From assembly GCA_041571435.1 (NCBI GenBank), contig JBFFUI010000022.1:1-34193 (forward strand): DNA of 34,193 nucleotides. Direction: 5' to 3'. Both the position numbers and the translations under genes were made by a program. Shown here in pieces: positions 17,589 through 25,472 of the stretch. Position 1 is the first letter of the stretch; each line of letters opens with the position of its first letter. The notes beneath the pieces were generated by a model. That model was not told where the DNA came from. It did not search any database and was given only the letters and a program-made list of their open reading frames with translations. Source of the stretch: Sulfurimonadaceae bacterium. Lineage in GTDB: Bacteria > Campylobacterota > Campylobacteria > Campylobacterales > Sulfurimonadaceae.

Positions 17589-18308
17589 TTACTTCAAAAG
17601 CTCCATAACGGCTGCGTTTTCGCTCTCTGCAGCGTAATCTTTGGCGCTCATCCCCTCTTCGTTCTTAAGCGAGGCATCAGCACCTTTGTCCAGAAGAAAT
17701 TTGACAAGCTCGGCATTGCCAAGCTCTGCGGCCAACATCAATGCTGTGATGCCCTCATCGTCCGCCGCATTGACGTTGATCGCAGTGCTCATCAACATTT
17801 CGGCAGTATCGGTGTGTTCGCCGATGATCGCTGTAAGGATCAATGAACCGCCGCAAGGGGATTTGACATTGATGTCGGCACCCAGCTTGATAAGGGCTTT
17901 CGCAGTCTCTGTATGTCCGTTTTCAACAGCCCATGTGATCACATACTTGCCGTTTTTGGTCTGCGTATTGATATCACCGCTGTGTTTTACAAGGTAGCTG
18001 AGAATATCTGTGTGCCCTTCGATCGCGGCATAGATGAGCGGACCGAAACCGCCGTTGTCTTTGACGTTGACGTCAGCCCCTTTGTCGACCAGAAGCGTGA
18101 CGACATCCATATGCCCCTCTTTGGCAGCCCACATCAGTGCTGTCGCATTGTTGTACTTGGAGTTGACATCCACTTTGGCAGTAAGCGCTTTGTTCACAGC
18201 GTTGATATCGCCTTTTTTGGCGGCTTCAACCAGCGCTTCATTGGCGAAAGCGGCTGTGAAAAACGACAGCGAGAAAAGGGTAAACAGGGTTTTTGAAAAA
18301 ATAGACAT
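17589..18308 (-). CDS. Secreted ankyrin-repeat protein
   Basis: Start at ATG 18308 (GGAG RBS), signal peptide ending AFA, repeated TALMWAA..GH.DVV.LL..GADVN motifs. Confidence 0.9.
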   Translation of the reverse strand: MSIFSKTLFTLFSLSFFTAAFANEALVEAAKKGDINAVNKALTAKVDVNSKYNNATALMWAAKEGHMDVVTLLVDKGADVNVKDNGGFGPLIYAAIEGHTDILSYLVKHSGDINTQTKNGKYVITWAVENGHTETAKALIKLGADINVKSPCGGSLILTAIIGEHTDTAEMLMSTAINVNAADDEGITALMLAAELGNAELVKFLLDKGADASLKNEEGMSAKDYAAESENAAVMELLK

Positions 18309-18405
18309 AGGAACTCCAGATGAAAAGATATGTTGTTCAATTATATAAACAATTTGCTTAACCGCACCACTTCTTGTGATGATACTTTCATCAGCGTCAT
18401 CGGAT

Positions 18406-18783
18406 TCAGGAAGGTTTCTCCGCCAGATGGACAAAAAAGAGCTGCAGCATATCGGTCACACTCAACTCTTTGAACCCTTCGTCCAGGACATTGCCGCCAT
18501 TGCCGGCACCGGTACCGATCCCGTCATAATATCTGATCGTGGCAGGGTTGTCGATGAGGTTGTTGACGGGTCTGTTGAAGAGGAGCGTATTGGCGTTGAT
18601 GTTATGCAGGGCGCAGAAGTCCAGGATCGCCTTGTAGGGAAGCGTATTGCGCCGTTTCATCGAGGCGAGGGTCGAAGGCGAGAGACCGAGAGCCGCCGCA
18701 ACATCTTTCTCATGGACCTTTGTCTGGCGGGTATGGGAAAGAATAATTTTGAGTTTAGTGATAATCGTTGCAAAATCGTTCAT
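18406..18783 (-). CDS. Phage CI-like HTH regulator lacking the S24 peptidase domain
   Basis: KDVAAALGLSPSTLASMKRRNTLPY HTH, then IRYY..GAGNGG linker and an early stop. Confidence 0.7.
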   Translation of the reverse strand: MNDFATIITKLKIILSHTRQTKVHEKDVAAALGLSPSTLASMKRRNTLPYKAILDFCALHNINANTLLFNRPVNNLIDNPATIRYYDGIGTGAGNGGNVLDEGFKELSVTDMLQLFFVHLAEKPS

Positions 18784-18985: not shown

Positions 18986-19073
18986 TGGTGGACAGCTAGG
19001 GATTCGAACCCTAGATAGGTTGCCCTATACCCGCGTTCCAGGCGAGCGCCTTCGACCACTCGGCCAGCTGTCC
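18986..19073 (-). tRNA. tRNA-Ser(GGA)
   Basis: GGACAGC-TGGCCGAGTGGTCGAAGGC, anticodon loop CTGGAAC, long variable arm ATAGG-GCAA-CCTAT, GTTCGAATCC, GCTGTCC-A-CCA. Confidence 0.95.
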
Positions 19074-19118: not shown

Positions 19119-20510
19119 TTAACTCTTGCGCAAACCGGTGAGAAGATAGGGGATGTCTAGAGACTCCCTAACCCCCTCGGTAAAGGTCTGGATACGTTCC
19201 TGCCGGAAGGTTTTGTAGTCAAAGGGGCGGTATTTTGCATCTATCTGACTGAAATAGTTGTTTCGCCAGCCATCATTGTCGAAGATGCCGTGCAGAAATG
19301 TGCCGTGGAGGTTGTGACGGTGATACCCCACCGGATAGGTGTCGCTTCGGCCATGGTGTATCTCATACCCTTTGATCTCAAAGTCAAAGAGCATCTCTGT
19401 CACTTGCCTCTGGATCTTCTCCTTTTCGAAGCGGATCTCGCCATCTATTCTTCCCAGCCCTTCAAATGATCCCTGCTGTTCAACCCCCTCTTCGTCGACA
19501 AGGGTCTCAAAGAGCATCTCATACCCGCCGCAGATACCAAAAAGCGGCTTCTCCCATCGTTTTATCAGCTCCGTGAAGCCCTGCTGTTCAAGCCACTGCA
19601 GGTCATCGACGGTGCGCCGTGTTCCCGGTAGGATAAGCAGGTCTGTGTTGTCGGTCTGTGAAGGGTGGGTGATAAACTGAAGATTGAGCGAGGGATCATT
19701 GATCAGCGGTTCAAAGTCGGTAAAGTTGCTGAGATGGGGGAACCTGATCACCGTGACGTTGATGGCGCCTTCATGACTCTCCTGAGTGTAGTTCTCCAGC
19801 GACTGGATATCCTCAAAGCCGATATTGAGCGGCAGGTAGGGGACAACGCCAAGCACTTTCAGCCCGAAACGCTCTTCGATGATGTTGACGCCCTCTTCAA
19901 AAAAGGCCATGTCGCCGCGGAACTTGTTGACAATCACACCGATGACATTGCATTTAAGTGCCTCGGGAAGGAGGTTGTAGACGCCCCAGATGGAGGCAAA
20001 GACACCGCCGCGTTCAATGTCGGCGACGAGGATGATCCTGGTCTCAAAGGCCTGCGCGACGTAGAGGTTGGAGAGGTCTTCGTTCATGAGGTTCAGCTCT
20101 ACCGGCGACCCGGCCCCCTCAGCGACGATAATGTCAAAATCGTTTTGCAGCTTCTCGAAAGCCGCTTTGACGATGGGCTTTTTGGCGTCGATGGTGCTGT
20201 AGTACTCACCGACGCTCTGCTCGTCACCGCTTTTACCGTTGATGATGAGCGAGGCCTTGCCGTTACTGCCCGATTTGAGCAGGATGGGGTTCATCTCATA
20301 ACGGGTCTCGAGCCCGACGGCCTCGGCCGCAAAATACTGCGCCTGGGCGATCTCGCCGCCGTCATCGCCGATGCGGGCGTTGTTGGAGACGTTCTGGGCC
20401 TTAAAGGGCGCGACACGGTAGCCTTCATCGTGGAGGATCTTGGTGATCGCCATGGAGAGCGTGGATTTGCCGGCGTCCGAACTGGTGCCGAAAATGGAGA
20501 GTGAGTGCAT
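19119..20510 (-). CDS. cobQ: Cobyric acid synthase
   Basis: GTSSDAGKS, PFKAQN, EGAGSPVELNL, DIERGG, NKFRGD, SNFTDF, GICGGY, GYEIH. Start at ATG 20510 (TGATG coupling). Confidence 0.93.
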   Translation of the reverse strand: MHSLSIFGTSSDAGKSTLSMAITKILHDEGYRVAPFKAQNVSNNARIGDDGGEIAQAQYFAAEAVGLETRYEMNPILLKSGSNGKASLIINGKSGDEQSVGEYYSTIDAKKPIVKAAFEKLQNDFDIIVAEGAGSPVELNLMNEDLSNLYVAQAFETRIILVADIERGGVFASIWGVYNLLPEALKCNVIGVIVNKFRGDMAFFEEGVNIIEERFGLKVLGVVPYLPLNIGFEDIQSLENYTQESHEGAINVTVIRFPHLSNFTDFEPLINDPSLNLQFITHPSQTDNTDLLILPGTRRTVDDLQWLEQQGFTELIKRWEKPLFGICGGYEMLFETLVDEEGVEQQGSFEGLGRIDGEIRFEKEKIQRQVTEMLFDFEIKGYEIHHGRSDTYPVGYHRHNLHGTFLHGIFDNDGWRNNYFSQIDAKYRPFDYKTFRQERIQTFTEGVRESLDIPYLLTGLRKS

Positions 20511-20956
20511 CAGTCGTGGCACTTCTTCATGATCTTTTTCCAATCCTCATCATAATGTTTTTCGACATAGCTGCGATGGTGGGGCACGGTGCAGTTGGAG
20601 CAGTCCTGGTGGATAGCGTCGCCATAGATCCCTTGTGCCCCCTCTTTGGAGTCGATAGCGCAGTTGCTGTAGAGCGTTTTTTCCCCGATCTTTTCCAGAC
20701 CGTCATCATTGAAGCGGAAGTTGGGGCAGGCGCAGAGGTAGCAGTTGAGCTGTTGCATGTCGTGGCACTTCTTCCCGACACGCCCCTCTTCGTTCTTCTC
20801 TCTGTAGAGCGGGCAGAAGTCGGGCTCGTTCTTGACCATGTTGTCAAAGTCAAAATAGGCGATGATCGCCTCTTTTTCAAGCCCCTCTGCCAGCAGCTTC
20901 TGCACCACTTTTTTGTGTTTTTGTGCATGCTCTTCGAACCACTTTAGATAACTCAT
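20510..20956 (-). CDS. Cysteine-rich small-domain protein
   Basis: FCPLY..KCH..LNCYLCACP..C..DCSNCTVPH. Translationally coupled on both sides. Confidence 0.8.
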   Translation of the reverse strand: MSYLKWFEEHAQKHKKVVQKLLAEGLEKEAIIAYFDFDNMVKNEPDFCPLYREKNEEGRVGKKCHDMQQLNCYLCACPNFRFNDDGLEKIGEKTLYSNCAIDSKEGAQGIYGDAIHQDCSNCTVPHHRSYVEKHYDEDWKKIMKKCHD

Positions 20957-21534
20957 AAGGCTGCTTTCACCTTGAGTGTAAAGGCACGCACCAGATAGAT
21001 TATCGTGACGATCTCTACTGCAAGGAGCAGAAAATGGAGATAATAGACCTGTACACTGTTCTCGGTGATCAGGAAGAAGTACTCAAGCACTTTATAGAAG
21101 AGAAATGAGACGATCAACCCCGTAAGGTACCCCTTCTGCTTCGCCACATCGAGAAAAGTGAACAGTTTGCTGCGTTTGAACATGATGGTCTCTGCTCGGA
21201 CCAGATAGGAGCCGAAAGCGAAGGTCGCCTGATAGCCGATATAGATCAAAAGTGCCGTGGCATAGCTGTAGGAGAAGAGCAGAAAGTAGAGCACCAGTGC
21301 CAGCATCACCGCCTCGACCGAGACAGAGATGCGGTAGAAGTAGCGGCGGTTCATAATGTGGGTGTATAACTTGGCAATGAACAGTACAGCCAGAGCGAGA
21401 AATATCCCGCCCACCGAGTAGACGGAGGGCTGAAGGGGCGTGTAGATGGTAAAGATGCTCCCGATCGAGAGTCCGGCAAAAAGAGAGTTGAAAAACTTGT
21501 AGTTGATAAACTCTCTCGTATCGATACTGGTCAT
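20953..21534 (-). CDS. Uncharacterised integral membrane protein (about 6 TM helices)
   Basis: Alternating hydrophobic segments, in operon between the TonB receptor and the Cys-rich gene. Confidence 0.8.
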   Translation of the reverse strand: MTSIDTREFINYKFFNSLFAGLSIGSIFTIYTPLQPSVYSVGGIFLALAVLFIAKLYTHIMNRRYFYRISVSVEAVMLALVLYFLLFSYSYATALLIYIGYQATFAFGSYLVRAETIMFKRSKLFTFLDVAKQKGYLTGLIVSFLFYKVLEYFFLITENSVQVYYLHFLLLAVEIVTIIYLVRAFTLKVKAAL

Positions 21535-21541
21535 TATGTTC

Positions 21542-23434
21542 CTAGAATTTCAGCTTTAACCCTGCGAATGCTGTTCTGGCATAGTTGATAGGATAGATCG
21601 CATCATCAGAAACCCAGAGCCCGTTTGACTGATTAAGCACGTTGTTCATCTTGGCGAAAACCTCATAACGCTCCTGTGTATAGGTGACAGAGATATCAGT
21701 GCTCATATAAGGGTCCTGCTTCTGCGTGAAGTTATTGTTAAAGTCGTTCGCGGCATAGGCCTCTGAACGGTATGTCTCTGTCAGAGAGATGGTTGTGCTT
21801 TGAACAGGCAGATAGTTAACAGTCGCTTTTACATTGTGGTCTGAGACACCCGGTAAAAAGTTGCCTGCATAATCCTGACCTGCCTCCTCATCGATGATGG
21901 CCTGCACATAGTTATAGTTCAGTGCGATGTTCCAAGCCTCTGTGATAAGCCACTTGTCATAGAGATCGATCCCGTATTTATGGGACTTGTCGATATTGGT
22001 ATTGGCAAAAGTCACAGGGTTATAATAGATCTCATTTCGCATATCAACATAGTAGGCTGCGATCTTGAACTTGTTAGTTGGTAGGATGTAGTTGTAGCCG
22101 AGTGTATAGTTATTGGCAGCCATCGGGTCAATAAAACTGTTGAATGTTCCGCCAAAAAGGAAAAACCTGTCGATATCGGGGGATTGGAAACTGCGTGAAT
22201 AGTTGGCAAAGAGTGACTGCTCTTTGGTCAATAGGTAGTTGTAGCCGAGTTCAGCACCGTGCAGCGCATCATCGTCTGTAATATCCGTAGTAAGATCCTG
22301 ATATCGGTAGGTCACTTTTTCATAACGGTAGCCGGCTTTCAATGATGAAGCACCGAAATACCACTGCGTCATCAAAAATCCCGCGATGTTATCTTTGTGT
22401 GTTCTGTTTCCAAACGCTTCACGCTGCCCGTCAAAACTGTCAATACCGACAGAGAGCGCCACCAAACCGGTCTCAATGTCAACGCTTGCCTTGAGTGTGT
22501 CGTAGATGTACTCTGCCGGCGTAAATGGTACATACTGGACTGTTTTCTCTTCGTGGAAACCGTCAAAGTTGACCGAAACAGTATCATTGATGTTGTAACT
22601 CGCGCCTGCATTGACGGTATCGCTTGTAAACTTCTGTTCTTTTGGCGAGCCGGTACCTGGCTGTAAAGGGTCCGTATCATACTCAGCTTTTGTCAGAGGA
22701 CCTCCATAAAACACATCAATGGTTGATGTGGCGGCACCGAGTCTGAACTCAAGTTCTTCAATAGGTGTGTATCCCATGTTAAAAGTAGCCGTTGACAATT
22801 TACTTTTGTCTTTGTTCCCGGCAGCATCGATCGTTCGTATACCGTCATTTCGCTGCATCTCACCGCTTGCAGAGATGCTGACCCTTTTATCACTGTGGCC
22901 AAGGTAGAATGAACCGTCTTTGGTGCCATAGCTGCCGCCATAGAGTGTCACAGATTTGTCATTACTGCCTTTTGTGATGATGTTGATAACACCGGCATTG
23001 GCGCCGTCGCCGCCAACAACAATGCCGCTGGATTTGATGATCTCGATCTTCTCGATCGACTCAGGGCTGATACTTGAAAGCAGTTGCGGGACCAAGTCGA
23101 TATTGTTCATGCGGCGACCATTTACGGTGACGACTATATTCTGGTTTCCGTTCGCGCCGTATCCATGCATGTCAAGTTGTTGCGTAAATGGATTGCCGTA
23201 ATTAGGCATCGCGATGACGGATGTCTGCTGGTTTAGAAACTCGTAGACATTCTGGACATGTGCTTTGTCTATGTCTTCAGCCGTGTAGACTTCGACAGCG
23301 TCGGTTGACTTGAGCTCGTCTGTTTCAATGGCTGTTGAGGAGACGGTTAAGGGTTCAAGCGTGACGCTGTTTGCAGCTGATGCTGCGCATGTCAATGCTG
23401 AAAGTGCAGCAAGTGAGAGTAGTATTTTGTTCAT
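21542..23434 (-). CDS. TonB-dependent receptor, probably BtuB-like (corrinoid uptake)
   Basis: Signal peptide, TonB-box-like EPLTVSS, plug motif IEKIEIIK..GVINIITK, C-terminal Phe. Substrate inferred from cobQ in the operon. Confidence 0.88.
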   Translation of the reverse strand: MNKILLSLAALSALTCAASAANSVTLEPLTVSSTAIETDELKSTDAVEVYTAEDIDKAHVQNVYEFLNQQTSVIAMPNYGNPFTQQLDMHGYGANGNQNIVVTVNGRRMNNIDLVPQLLSSISPESIEKIEIIKSSGIVVGGDGANAGVINIITKGSNDKSVTLYGGSYGTKDGSFYLGHSDKRVSISASGEMQRNDGIRTIDAAGNKDKSKLSTATFNMGYTPIEELEFRLGAATSTIDVFYGGPLTKAEYDTDPLQPGTGSPKEQKFTSDTVNAGASYNINDTVSVNFDGFHEEKTVQYVPFTPAEYIYDTLKASVDIETGLVALSVGIDSFDGQREAFGNRTHKDNIAGFLMTQWYFGASSLKAGYRYEKVTYRYQDLTTDITDDDALHGAELGYNYLLTKEQSLFANYSRSFQSPDIDRFFLFGGTFNSFIDPMAANNYTLGYNYILPTNKFKIAAYYVDMRNEIYYNPVTFANTNIDKSHKYGIDLYDKWLITEAWNIALNYNYVQAIIDEEAGQDYAGNFLPGVSDHNVKATVNYLPVQSTTISLTETYRSEAYAANDFNNNFTQKQDPYMSTDISVTYTQERYEVFAKMNNVLNQSNGLWVSDDAIYPINYARTAFAGLKLKF

Positions 23435-23435
23435 T

Positions 23436-23801
23436 TTATATCCTGTAAGTTATGTTTGTTTGTTGAAAGTCTAAATGAAAATCGGGCGGTGATGTGACCG
23501 AGTTGGCGTAGCGGTAAGGGCGTATGTTTCGTTGTGGTTTCGCATTGTGGCGGATGCGGTTTCGGGTGATGCGGTTATAAAAGCAGTTGCAATGGCCGGC
23601 ATGGGTCGGCAGGGAAAGGACGGTGCAACTGAGCAGCTCTTCGAGCTCGTCGTCGGCGCTCTCTTTTGTCTCCCAGTCGGGCTGGGTAAGATGCGATGCG
23701 TTTACACGTACGGAGGTGGCGCTGAGGTGGTGTTGTACGACTGTTGCCTGTATGGCGGCAAGTGAGAAGTAATTTTTACCGAAACCTTTTGGTGCGCGCA
23801 T
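23436..23801 (-). CDS. Upstream leader ORF (121 aa) of the TonB receptor operon
   Basis: TGCTATAAT promoter, AGGAG RBS, ATG 23801. Stop TAA 1 nt before the receptor ATG. Contains HH, HAGHCNC and TSPP. Confidence 0.7.
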   Translation of the reverse strand: MRAPKGFGKNYFSLAAIQATVVQHHLSATSVRVNASHLTQPDWETKESADDELEELLSCTVLSLPTHAGHCNCFYNRITRNRIRHNAKPQRNIRPYRYANSVTSPPDFHLDFQQTNITYRI

Positions 23802-23823
23802 CGATTCTCCTGGAATTTTCGGA

Positions 23824-23832
23824 ATTATAGCA
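23824..23832 (-). promoter_or_regulatory. Extended -10 promoter (TGCTATAAT) of the leader-TBDR-cobQ operon
   Basis: Exact TGnTATAAT about 22 nt upstream of the leader ATG. Confidence 0.7.
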
Positions 23833-23844
23833 GAAGAGTCTGAT

Positions 23845-24021
23845 TTACTTGGTATCTTCTTTGAACTCTTTGGTACTTTCATTAAAAGACTTTTTGGTGT
23901 TGCCCCAGGCATTTTTAAAGCCTTGGTTAATATTGTGCAGGTTCTTTTTCGACTCTTGTTTGGTACAGCCGACGAAAAAAAGCATGCCTAATGACAGGGT
24001 GATTAAAAACAGCGGTCTCAT
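23845..24021 (-). CDS. Small lipoprotein (58 aa)
   Basis: Hand-translated MRPLFLITLSLGMLFFVG-CTKQESKK...EFKEDTK*. Lipobox FVGC, AAGGA RBS, TGCTATACT at 24065-24073. Confidence 0.8.
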   Translation of the reverse strand: MRPLFLITLSLGMLFFVGCTKQESKKNLHNINQGFKNAWGNTKKSFNESTKEFKEDTK

Positions 24022-24143
24022 TGTTGATAGATCCTTGAATTGATTTAGCTTATAGATAGTAAGAAGTATAGCAAAACGTTCCTATAACAGAAGAGGGAGT
24101 CTTCGCTATAATTGCGCTGACAAACAGCCCCACAAGGATCGGC

Positions 24144-25472
24144 ATGAAACTCTCGCATCTACGACAGATCGTTGACTATATGCAGTCATTGAAGCATATC
24201 AATGCCATCCACCGCATCGGCGACAGTGTTCTCAAGATCGTCTTCGACCGTGATAACATCTTCTACTTCAATATGCAAAAGGGCAACGCCTACATCTCTA
24301 AATGCGCCAAAGAGGTGCGCCGATCCAAGGTCTATAATGCCCCCTTTGATGTCATCATCTCAAAGCGGTTCAACCGTGCCCAGATCGAGAGCATTGAGCT
24401 CTACAACGATGACAAGATCATCCGCATCAAAGCGTCGATCAGCGGTGCCTACAAGGCGCAGAGCACCATCTTGCAGCTTGAGTTCACGGGCAAGACGACC
24501 AACGTCATCATCCTTGACGATGACGAGATCATCCTTGAAGCGCTCAGACATGTGGACGCCTACAGTTCGTACCGGATCATCAAGGTGGGGCAGGAACTTG
24601 TCGCACCGCCCGCTCTGCCGTTCACACCAAAAGAGTACCCGCTTGAGGATGTCGAAGCGTTCTTGCTGGAGACCTGCGAGAAAGAGCAGGCACAGCGTCT
24701 AAACAGTCTGAAAAAACAGAAGTCGGTCTATATCACCAAAAAACTGCACAAACTGGAGCGCCTCTACGCCAAACTCGATGACGAGGCTCTGCTGCAGGAG
24801 GAGGTCGACAGGCTCCAGCACTACGGCAACCTGGTTCTGAGCAACCTGCACACCATCAAACCCTACCAAAGTGTGCTGGCACTGACCGATTATGATGGTA
24901 CGGTGGTCCATGTCGAGGTCGATGACAAGATCAGCGTCCCTTCGCGCTATTCGGACTACCTCTTCAAACGGGCGAAGAAAGCGAAGCAGAAGGTGAAAAA
25001 CCTCCATATCGAGCGCGAAAGTCTTGCCGGAAAGATCAACCACCTCAAACACTTTCTCGACGTGATCCAACATGCCAAAGATGTGGCGGCCATCGACCTG
25101 CTCTTTCCGCCGCGACAGCAGATGAAAAAAGAGAAGCCCAACGAGTCGTATGAGGTCTTCTGGGTGGAGGGCTACAAGGTGCTGCTGGGCAAAAGCGAAA
25201 AGGGGAACATCGAACTGCTCGAGAACGCACGGGCAAAAGATATCTGGTTTCACATGCGTGACCGCCCTTCGGCTCATGTGATCGTCGTGACCGACAAAAA
25301 GAACATTCCCGAAAGCGTCATACACGAGGCAGCCGGTCTCTGCGTCGATTTTACGATGTTTGAGAACGGGCATTATCTGGTCGACTATACGCAGCGTCGG
25401 AATGTGAAGATACAGGATGGGGCAAACGTCCACTATACGGACTATAATACGGTCGATATCGTAAAATATTAA
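24144..25472 (+). CDS. NFACT family protein (RqcH/FbpA-like)
   Basis: LQLEFTGKTTNVIILD NFACT-N, coiled coil, GKSEKGN..DIWFH..SAHV NFACT-R. TATAAT at 24107-24112. Confidence 0.88.
   Translation: MKLSHLRQIVDYMQSLKHINAIHRIGDSVLKIVFDRDNIFYFNMQKGNAYISKCAKEVRRSKVYNAPFDVIISKRFNRAQIESIELYNDDKIIRIKASISGAYKAQSTILQLEFTGKTTNVIILDDDEIILEALRHVDAYSSYRIIKVGQELVAPPALPFTPKEYPLEDVEAFLLETCEKEQAQRLNSLKKQKSVYITKKLHKLERLYAKLDDEALLQEEVDRLQHYGNLVLSNLHTIKPYQSVLALTDYDGTVVHVEVDDKISVPSRYSDYLFKRAKKAKQKVKNLHIERESLAGKINHLKHFLDVIQHAKDVAAIDLLFPPRQQMKKEKPNESYEVFWVEGYKVLLGKSEKGNIELLENARAKDIWFHMRDRPSAHVIVVTDKKNIPESVIHEAAGLCVDFTMFENGHYLVDYTQRRNVKIQDGANVHYTDYNTVDIVKY

Follow-up and report, generated by a model that had tools for sequence, protein, structure and literature searches.

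A conserved leader-peptide family at the head of vitamin B12 genes in Campylobacterota: candidate corrinoid-responsive arrest peptides

Introduction

In bacteria, riboswitches are usually held to regulate the vitamin B12 genes, and the classical set under their control comprises receptors, transporters, cob genes, cobalt transport genes and metE. The DNA analyzed here, referred to as the window, is a stretch of 34,193 nucleotides from a Sulfurimonadaceae bacterium (assembly GCA_041571435.1, contig JBFFUI010000022.1, positions 1 to 34,193). It harbours an operon with a TonB-dependent receptor gene and cobQ, preceded by an open reading frame (ORF) of 121 amino acids that fills the whole leader. 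A first-pass annotation, made from the sequence alone, suggested that this ORF takes the place of a B12 riboswitch and encodes an arrest peptide sensing cobalt or a corrinoid. The locus raises the question of what the leader is, and whether a translated peptide can do here what elsewhere is done by a structured RNA.

The leader locus

The following elements were located around the start of the operon:

23824..23832, minus strand: extended -10 promoter box TGCTATAAT, read from the sequence
23807..23811, minus strand: Shine-Dalgarno sequence AGGAG of the leader ORF, read from the sequence
23436..23801, minus strand: leader ORF, 121 aa plus TAA (start ATG 23801-23799, stop TAA 23438-23436), from the ORF listing
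23441..23444, minus strand: AGGA Shine-Dalgarno sequence of the receptor gene, inside the leader ORF, read from the sequence

The first-pass annotation had placed the promoter, the ribosome binding site, the 121-aa ORF with its stop, and the receptor ATG with its AGGA at exactly these minus-strand positions. The leader TAA and the receptor ATG (23434-23432) are separated by a single base, and in close relatives the AGGA is found ~38-41 nt after the Pro-Pro (PP) pair described below. The frame of the leader ORF is open further upstream, to an ATG at 23912. At 64 of 79 loci of the leader family a TAYAMT box is present, mostly 23-29 nt 5′ of the leader start codon, which indicates that the leader is the first element on the transcript and the first to be translated; the predicted transcription start is ~15-20 nt 5′ of the leader ORF. 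An SD-like triplet was found at -16 to -4 of the leader start in 66 of 77 family loci. A scan for two-hexamer sigma-70 promoters gave no match at the leader, because the leader promoter lacks a -35 element. Just upstream of this promoter lies an ORF for a 58-aa lipoprotein-like protein (23845-24021, minus strand) with a signal peptide ending in FFVGC, which is kept in the closest relatives (tblastn).

A translated family under purifying selection

ORFs with the same motifs were found 5′ of orthologous receptor genes at 11 of 14 loci, the locus of the window included. Two of the remaining loci are cut by contig ends, with the C-terminal part of the leader visible, and one lacks the ORF. Database searches yielded 58 homologous proteins, unnamed or annotated as hypothetical apart from one evident mis-annotation, and none with a Pfam domain. 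A profile search with the leader returned 168 cluster representatives, and a scan of one genome per species revealed 225 leader loci. Counts of locus context given below rest on the best 80 of these 225 loci, among which all loci with a taxon label belong to the Campylobacterota. In a sample of 401 genomes of this phylum, the profile of the whole leader matched 125 and that of its C-terminal module 158.

Codon-position entropy in 18 amino-acid-conserved columns of 79 leaders was 0.125, 0.07 and 1.224 bits for the first, second and third position, respectively. The invariant prolines of these 79 leaders make use of each of the four Pro codons, and all four Gly codons are used as well. Pairwise dN/dS was ~0.10-0.16 for pairs with up to 30% non-synonymous difference and 0.31 in the most divergent bin, giving about 0.1-0.2 for the family overall. 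Judged by these substitution patterns, the leader ORF is a real, translated family under purifying selection. The first-pass annotation had named conservation and dN/dS of the Ser-Pro-Pro (SPP) and His/Cys residues among the checks on its proposal; ORF, Cys and SPP proved to be strongly kept in the leaders compared.

A sequence search of the PDB with the leader profile gave no match, and AlphaFold2 produced no confident fold for the leader peptide (pLDDT 58.5, pTM 0.20). Its neighbours in a protein atlas were unnamed clusters, next to a weak lead to CzcI-like proteins.

Anatomy of the leader peptide

The peptide can be divided into the following parts:

23745..23792, minus strand: N-module, residues 4-19 (PKGFGKNYFSLAAIQA); P4, G6, F7, G8, K9, N10, Y11, F12 and A19 are invariant in 25 sequences, with third codon positions varying freely
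23583..23603, minus strand: His/Cys cluster HAGHCNC, residues 67-73; Cys71 is invariant, and many relatives have CHCNC
23484..23591, minus strand: C-module, from Cys71 to Pro106, basic and free of acidic residues
23484..23492, minus strand: SPP, proposed ribosome arrest site; PP is invariant
23439..23483, minus strand: tail of 15 aa after PP, unconserved as seen from the drop in identity, overlapping the G-poor spacer

Cys71 is the sole invariant Cys of the family, and P105 and P106 are likewise invariant. In 77 leaders the spacing between Cys and PP is 34 (21 leaders), 36 (50), 37 (1) or 39 (5) residues; 34-39 residues is about the length of the ribosomal exit tunnel. The residue before PP is Ser in 74 of 79 leaders and His in the other 5. 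Conservation ends at this point: mean identity over 241 pairs is 0.68 in the last 30 residues before PP versus 0.15 in the first 8 residues after it. The tail varies from 0 to 86 aa, being absent in 8 of 79 leaders and at most 5 aa long in 30 of 79. The leader of L031 / L005 (a relative of the window) lacks a stop codon and reads through in frame into the receptor gene.

QHHL, THAGHCNC, an Arg-rich stretch and SPP (23492-23484), the motifs picked out by the first-pass annotation, are all present in the window peptide. Across the family the Cys and SPP held up, whereas QHHL and the Arg-rich run turned out not to be family features, and the Cys motif takes the form CxC or CHCNC and not CxxC.

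Several variants of this architecture were found. Leaders of 63-78 aa that consist of the C-module only, the N-module being absent, precede MetE in several genera. One genus has leaders of 49-53 aa before receptors, with an N-module, a short stretch that contains a Cys in most, and SPP; the CxC cluster is absent and the Cys stands just ~14 residues before PP. Neither the N-module nor the C-module is universal; the xPP end alone is.

The leader N-module corresponds to the N-terminus, or signal peptide, of some TonB receptors, which suggests, on sequence likeness, that the first half of the leader derives from the 5′ end of a receptor gene, or the reverse. The hydrophobic core of the N-module is short, and in many relatives an Arg is found inside the would-be core. 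The receptors of L122, L123, L126, L127, L128 and L013 have the N-terminus KGF[KRG][GK][RK]YFSLAAI..., followed by an acidic stretch.

Genes behind the leaders

In the window, the leader is followed by four genes:

21542..23434, minus strand: TonB-dependent receptor, 630 aa, with Plug and barrel domains
20953..21534, minus strand: multi-pass membrane protein of 193 aa, of no known family by domain searches
20510..20956, minus strand: Cys-rich protein of 148 aa, with a weak match to PF04071 (20.8 bits versus a cut-off of 27)
19119..20543, minus strand: cobyric acid synthase CobQ (NF001989, 477.2 bits versus a cut-off of 273), with its likely ATG near 20510

The receptor scores 75.5 bits against TIGR01779 (TonB-B12), with a cut-off of 599.7, and is BtuB-like by context but only weakly so by sequence. 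In relatives, the 193-aa membrane protein is found where other operons have BtuFCD-like genes, and it may be a new inner-membrane corrinoid transporter. The idea that it is BtuM-like was dropped, since a PDB sequence search gave a chance match only. The gene for the 148-aa Cys-rich protein recurs in 26 related operons; a PDB sequence search with this protein likewise returned chance matches only. Directly after cobQ lies a tRNA-Ser gene (18986-19073), and further along a gene for an ankyrin-repeat protein of 281 aa with matches to several Ank families (17589-18434, minus strand).

The next gene could be called at 68 of the best 80 of 225 loci. It codes for a TonB receptor at 56 loci, for a porin followed by CbiM at 7, and for MetE at 5; the porin before CbiM is OmpL-like. 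Among the 50 receptor operons with further co-directional genes, 43 contain Cob enzymes (CobQ/CbiA-type, CobU, CobS, CobT-like or CobC-like) or PBP/ABC/FecCD genes, the latter coding for a BtuF-like binding protein, an ABC ATPase and a FecCD permease. All three gene classes (receptor, porin-CbiM and MetE) follow leaders with one and the same CHCNC...xPP module. By gene content, the leader family heads three unrelated gene sets that correspond to the classical B12 regulon. With leaders also found before MetE and porin-CbiM, the link to corrinoids is firmer than could be seen from the window alone.

Some receptor-BtuFCD-like operons contain a YcaO gene, located between the permease gene and the gene for the Cys-rich protein (L050:9715-11334 and 11 other loci); the NCBIfam model that it matches best is of the S12-accessory type, with 505 bits versus a cut-off of 700. 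A reading of the leader as a RiPP precursor was rejected: YcaO is present at just 12 of the 80 loci and at none of the MetE or CbiM loci.

A second leader in the same genome

The genome from which the window derives encodes a second leader (locus L113, contig C17:25474-25809, minus strand). It is 111 aa long, has a GTG start and ends in ...RRTGVHPPLFTL. It is located ~110 nt upstream of the gene for MetE, which scores 1058 bits on NF003556 versus a cut-off of 541. MetH is also present. CbiC, CbiD and CbiM were not found in this genome, which is scored 100% complete. With both MetE and MetH present and these Cbi proteins absent, the organism is therefore taken to be a corrinoid salvager with both methionine synthases. 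The genes rho and efp (EF-P) are present as well.

Search for a riboswitch, RNA structure or terminator

At gathering scores, Rfam searches of the window returned two tRNAs and no cobalamin family, and in 23300-24150 a single chance match to SCARNA7, and again no cobalamin family, was obtained at E<=10. RF00174 was found in 0 of 41 genomes (the own genome and 40 relatives) and in 0 of 150 genomes of a wider sample of the phylum; the same search gave matches in 7 of 14 well-known genomes that served as controls. RF01482 and RF01689 were not found in the own genome. The first-pass annotation had seen no cobalamin riboswitch by eye, and the model-based searches agree: the window, its genome and 190 further sampled Campylobacterota genomes were all empty. 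Neither a riboswitch hit nor a lack of ORF and motif conservation in orthologous leaders, both named by that annotation as refuting its proposal, was thus obtained.

The consensus fold of 30 of the 79 leaders (RNAalifold) has ~11 pairs, and the fold of the window leader is no more stable than that of shuffled sequences (z-score +0.21). No intrinsic terminator-like site was found in 23200-24100. Classical amino-acid attenuation of the trpL type was rejected, as there is no terminator-like site and no conserved structure. A divergent cobalamin riboswitch or other structured RNA, with the ORF incidental, would fit the position and the regulon, but its probability is close to negligible in view of the missing Rfam cobalamin match even at E<=10, the confinement of variation to third codon positions, the almost empty consensus structure and the fold z-score.

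The C-rich tract and the spacer

One further element was marked by its composition:

23461..23580, minus strand: C-rich, G-poor, rut-like tract with 45 C and 15 G, by count

An earlier hand count of this tract proved exact. Among 11,447 windows of 120 nt from long ORFs of the same genome, 0.017% have a C/G skew at least as high as the 0.50 of this tract. Across the leader family the median skew is 0.50 (range 0.22-0.70). G makes up 5.5% of third codon positions in the C-module versus 16.4% in the N-terminal part. The G-poverty of the tract is largely explained by amino-acid composition, G making up 6% of first codon positions.

The spacer behind PP contains 7.7% G, varies in sequence between loci and is followed by AGGA. 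Despite the lack of conservation in spacer sequence, the next start codon follows PP at a distance of 40-70 nt at 45 of 67 loci. For a classical intergenic rut site the spacer is too short. Masking of the ribosome binding site by a hairpin was rejected as a mechanism, the spacers being G-poor and unconserved, and termination-reinitiation coupling was rejected as a general mechanism, since the gap between stop and start ranges from overlap to >60 nt. At ~15 loci, among which L058, L059, L073, L076, L087 and L062, the stretch from PP to the receptor start is interrupted by GC-rich inverted-repeat hairpins (units with CGTCATTGCGAG), in some cases as tandem copies.

Comparison with known systems

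Cobalamin riboswitches (RF00174, RF01482, RF01689) precede the same genes (btuB-like, btuFCD-like, cob, cbiM and metE) and occupy the same 5′ leader position as the leader family, but the riboswitch is a structured RNA whereas the leader is a translated peptide. TnaC, SecM and SpeFL-type peptides, which respond to a ligand or to force, stall the very ribosome that makes them at a site with Pro, and the stalled ribosome governs either the access of Rho or translation downstream; any codon, a stop codon included, can follow the arrest site. The leader family is unrelated to these peptides in sequence, and its proposed ligand is a corrinoid. The nearest case is reported from Mycobacterium tuberculosis, where a B12 riboswitch controls a uORF before metE (PMC11260477). 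There the sensor is the RNA, whereas the leader family has a conserved peptide sequence and no detectable riboswitch.

The closest parallels are CruR and CutF. In CruR of Bordetella pertussis (Bp2923, DUF2946/PF11162), copper, via CXXC, relieves arrest at RAPP and lets Rho terminate transcription. The Cys motif of CruR and its PP are ~45 residues apart, with RAPP ~3 residues from the end, and an N-terminal export signal or transmembrane segment is present in >95% of the DUF2946 members (PMC9426467). CruR and the leader family have in common that the peptide is encoded by the first ORF of a TonB-dependent-transporter operon, that a Cys motif stands at a fixed distance from a C-terminal xxPP, and that the RNA is C-rich. 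Rho termination is proposed for CruR; in the leader family a C>G tract and a rho gene are seen, and a role of Rho may be assumed by analogy.

The leader family differs from CruR in several respects. Its motifs are CxC/CHCNC and SPP/HPP versus CXXC and RAPP, so that the likeness to RAPP is in PP alone, and its Cys-PP spacing is 34-39 residues versus ~45. The tail of the leaders is variable, there is no long intergenic region and the regulon is that of B12, whereas the CruR regulon is that of copper. CruR usually has an export signal (PMC9426467); the leader N-module equals the signal peptide of some receptors, but with a short core, often with Arg, and the short metE forms lack the N-module altogether.

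Membership of the leader family in DUF2946 was rejected. PF11162 (cut-off 23.7 bits) matched 0 of 25 family members even at E<=10, and an hhalign comparison of the leader family with the DUF2946-like ORFs of the genus gave 0.4% probability over 7 columns. The earlier suggestion of an independent family is borne out by these comparisons. A six-frame search of the genome with PF11162 did return a match, to another ORF on contig C16 and not to the leader. This CruR-like ORF (L143, C16:1269-1532, minus strand) encodes 88 aa with a transmembrane segment, CQVC, and SRAPP five residues from the end. It scores 19 bits on PF11162, below the cut-off of 23.7, is located upstream of a gene for a signal-peptide protein without a Pfam match, and is kept in the genus (alignment A2). 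The genome therefore contains two unrelated Cys...PP leader families.

CutF of Rhodobacter capsulatus stalls at a proline-rich motif during export (PMC9973294; bioRxiv 10.1101/2025.02.05.636593), and clusters of His-rich CutF-like proteins adjoin Ni/Co genes (PMC9973294). CutF-like proteins and the leader family share, by analogy of layout, a length of <150 aa, a Cys/His motif, a proline stall motif close to the C-terminal end, and presumed cis control of the next gene. The length and neighbour rules by which CutF-like proteins are recognized agree with the window peptide, and its 15 residues after PP are borderline. CutF needs Sec export and melts a stem-loop that masks a ribosome binding site (PMC9973294), whereas the leader family is without a conserved stem-loop. 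Short forms of the leader would be too short to reach the periplasm while arrested.

The leader family resembles CruR and CutF on every anatomical count and yet, by sequence, does not belong to the CruR family (DUF2946). The supplementary member lists of the CruR and CutF studies could hold leader-family members under another name. A literature search outside the subscription journals turned up no account of this motif, nor of an arrest peptide that responds to B12.

Proposed mechanism

The reading that we hold to be rather probable is that the 121-aa ORF is a cis-acting, corrinoid-responsive arrest-peptide leader of the B12 regulon, with a CruR-like way of working and belonging to an independent family; we infer the ligand, the stall and the part of Rho. 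The leader probably does the job of the riboswitch with a nascent peptide instead of an RNA, because a conserved Cys...PP leader heads B12 genes and no B12 riboswitch was found in the sampled genomes of the phylum.

The ribosome would arrest at the invariant Ser-Pro-Pro. During arrest, the basic C-module of 34-36 residues would fill the exit tunnel, placing the invariant Cys of the H/C-x-C cluster at the tunnel vestibule. A corrinoid, or a corrinoid-loaded factor, would then act on the emerging chain and change the arrest. If the leader works as CruR does, the C-rich, G-poor tract would be covered by the arrested ribosome and the operon would stay on, while relief of arrest by the ligand would allow Rho to terminate, so that uptake, salvage and MetE are turned off once B12 is abundant. 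Least certain are the direction of the switch and the part of Rho, both modelled on CruR. Arrest relieved by the ligand is favoured because B12 would be expected to turn off every gene under this control. As for the ligand, a corrinoid is a better candidate than Co2+ because MetE and salvage genes share the sensor and the genome cannot make the corrin ring. Direct occlusion of the next SD is unlikely, as the stall site is ~40 nt away from it.

Several points speak against this arrest-peptide reading. The leader peptide contains no known B12-binding motif, and cobalamin is bulky for a ligand that binds in the tunnel. Clusters of Cys and His are found more typically in sensors of metal ions. The shortness of the spacer, its inserted hairpins at ~15 loci and the composition-driven G-poverty of the tract count against a rut site. 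The short metE leaders lack the N-module, and the receptor leaders of 49-53 aa lack the CxC cluster. Extended to its most specific form, the proposal would be that the whole phylum swapped the cobalamin riboswitch for a nascent-peptide sensor, in which the Cys/His cluster ligates the cobalt of the corrinoid at the ribosome exit, alters arrest at SPP and gates Rho on the C-rich tract. In this full form the proposal is tentative and its truth somewhat doubtful.

Alternative explanations

The same arrest-peptide device might use its Cys and His residues to sense Co2+ or some other transition-metal ion. Such a ligand would suit the CHCNC/HxxHCNC cluster and the CbiM cobalt-transporter genes behind 7 of the leaders. 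CzcI-like small proteins are among the language-model neighbours of the leader (0.92), a weak lead of low recognition. Copper is the ligand of both CruR and CutF, and His-rich CutF-like clusters occur beside Ni/Co genes (PMC9973294). We nevertheless regard metal-ion sensing as unlikely. The same motif heads MetE and corrinoid salvage operons, cobalt says little about B12 status in a genome without CbiC, CbiD and CbiM, and there is no obvious logic in repressing corrinoid uptake when cobalt is present.

A second alternative keeps the leader translated and needed in cis, and assigns the reading of B12 to a partner in trans that recognizes the nascent N-module or the leader mRNA. The partner could be a corrinoid-binding protein, for instance the 148-aa Cys-rich protein, or a small RNA. 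The invariant PxGFGKNYF module would be outside the tunnel at the time of arrest, the Cys-rich gene is found in 26 operons, and the lack of universality of either module would be accommodated. However, MetE and CbiM leaders occur at loci with no gene for the 148-aa protein nearby, and more parts are needed than in the direct model. A partner in trans is considered quite unlikely.

That the leader is an ordinary small protein of corrinoid uptake or trafficking and no regulator, exported for example by its signal-peptide-like N-terminus, is very improbable. Strong purifying selection and the identity of the N-module with the signal peptide of some TonB receptors agree with such a role. They have to be set against the lack of a confident AlphaFold2 fold, a C-terminal tail that is unconstrained and sometimes runs into the next gene, a size of just 49-78 aa in some forms, and the Arg in the would-be hydrophobic core of many relatives. 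Moreover, a separate copy precedes each of the unrelated operons, that of the cytoplasmic MetE included.

Implications

If the leader family is indeed a set of corrinoid-responsive arrest peptides, a widespread class of riboswitches can be replaced in its role by regulatory arrest peptides, and a cofactor would join the short list of ligands that are read by nascent chains. Such a leader would be the first sensor of vitamin B12 that is a protein and acts co-translationally, as well as the first arrest peptide with an enzyme cofactor as its ligand. In Sulfurimonas, Sulfurovum, Sulfurospirillum and relatives, the leader would also mark B12-regulated genes at the sequence level. The 193-aa membrane protein, the 148-aa Cys-rich protein and the porin-CbiM pair would then be candidate new parts of corrinoid transport.
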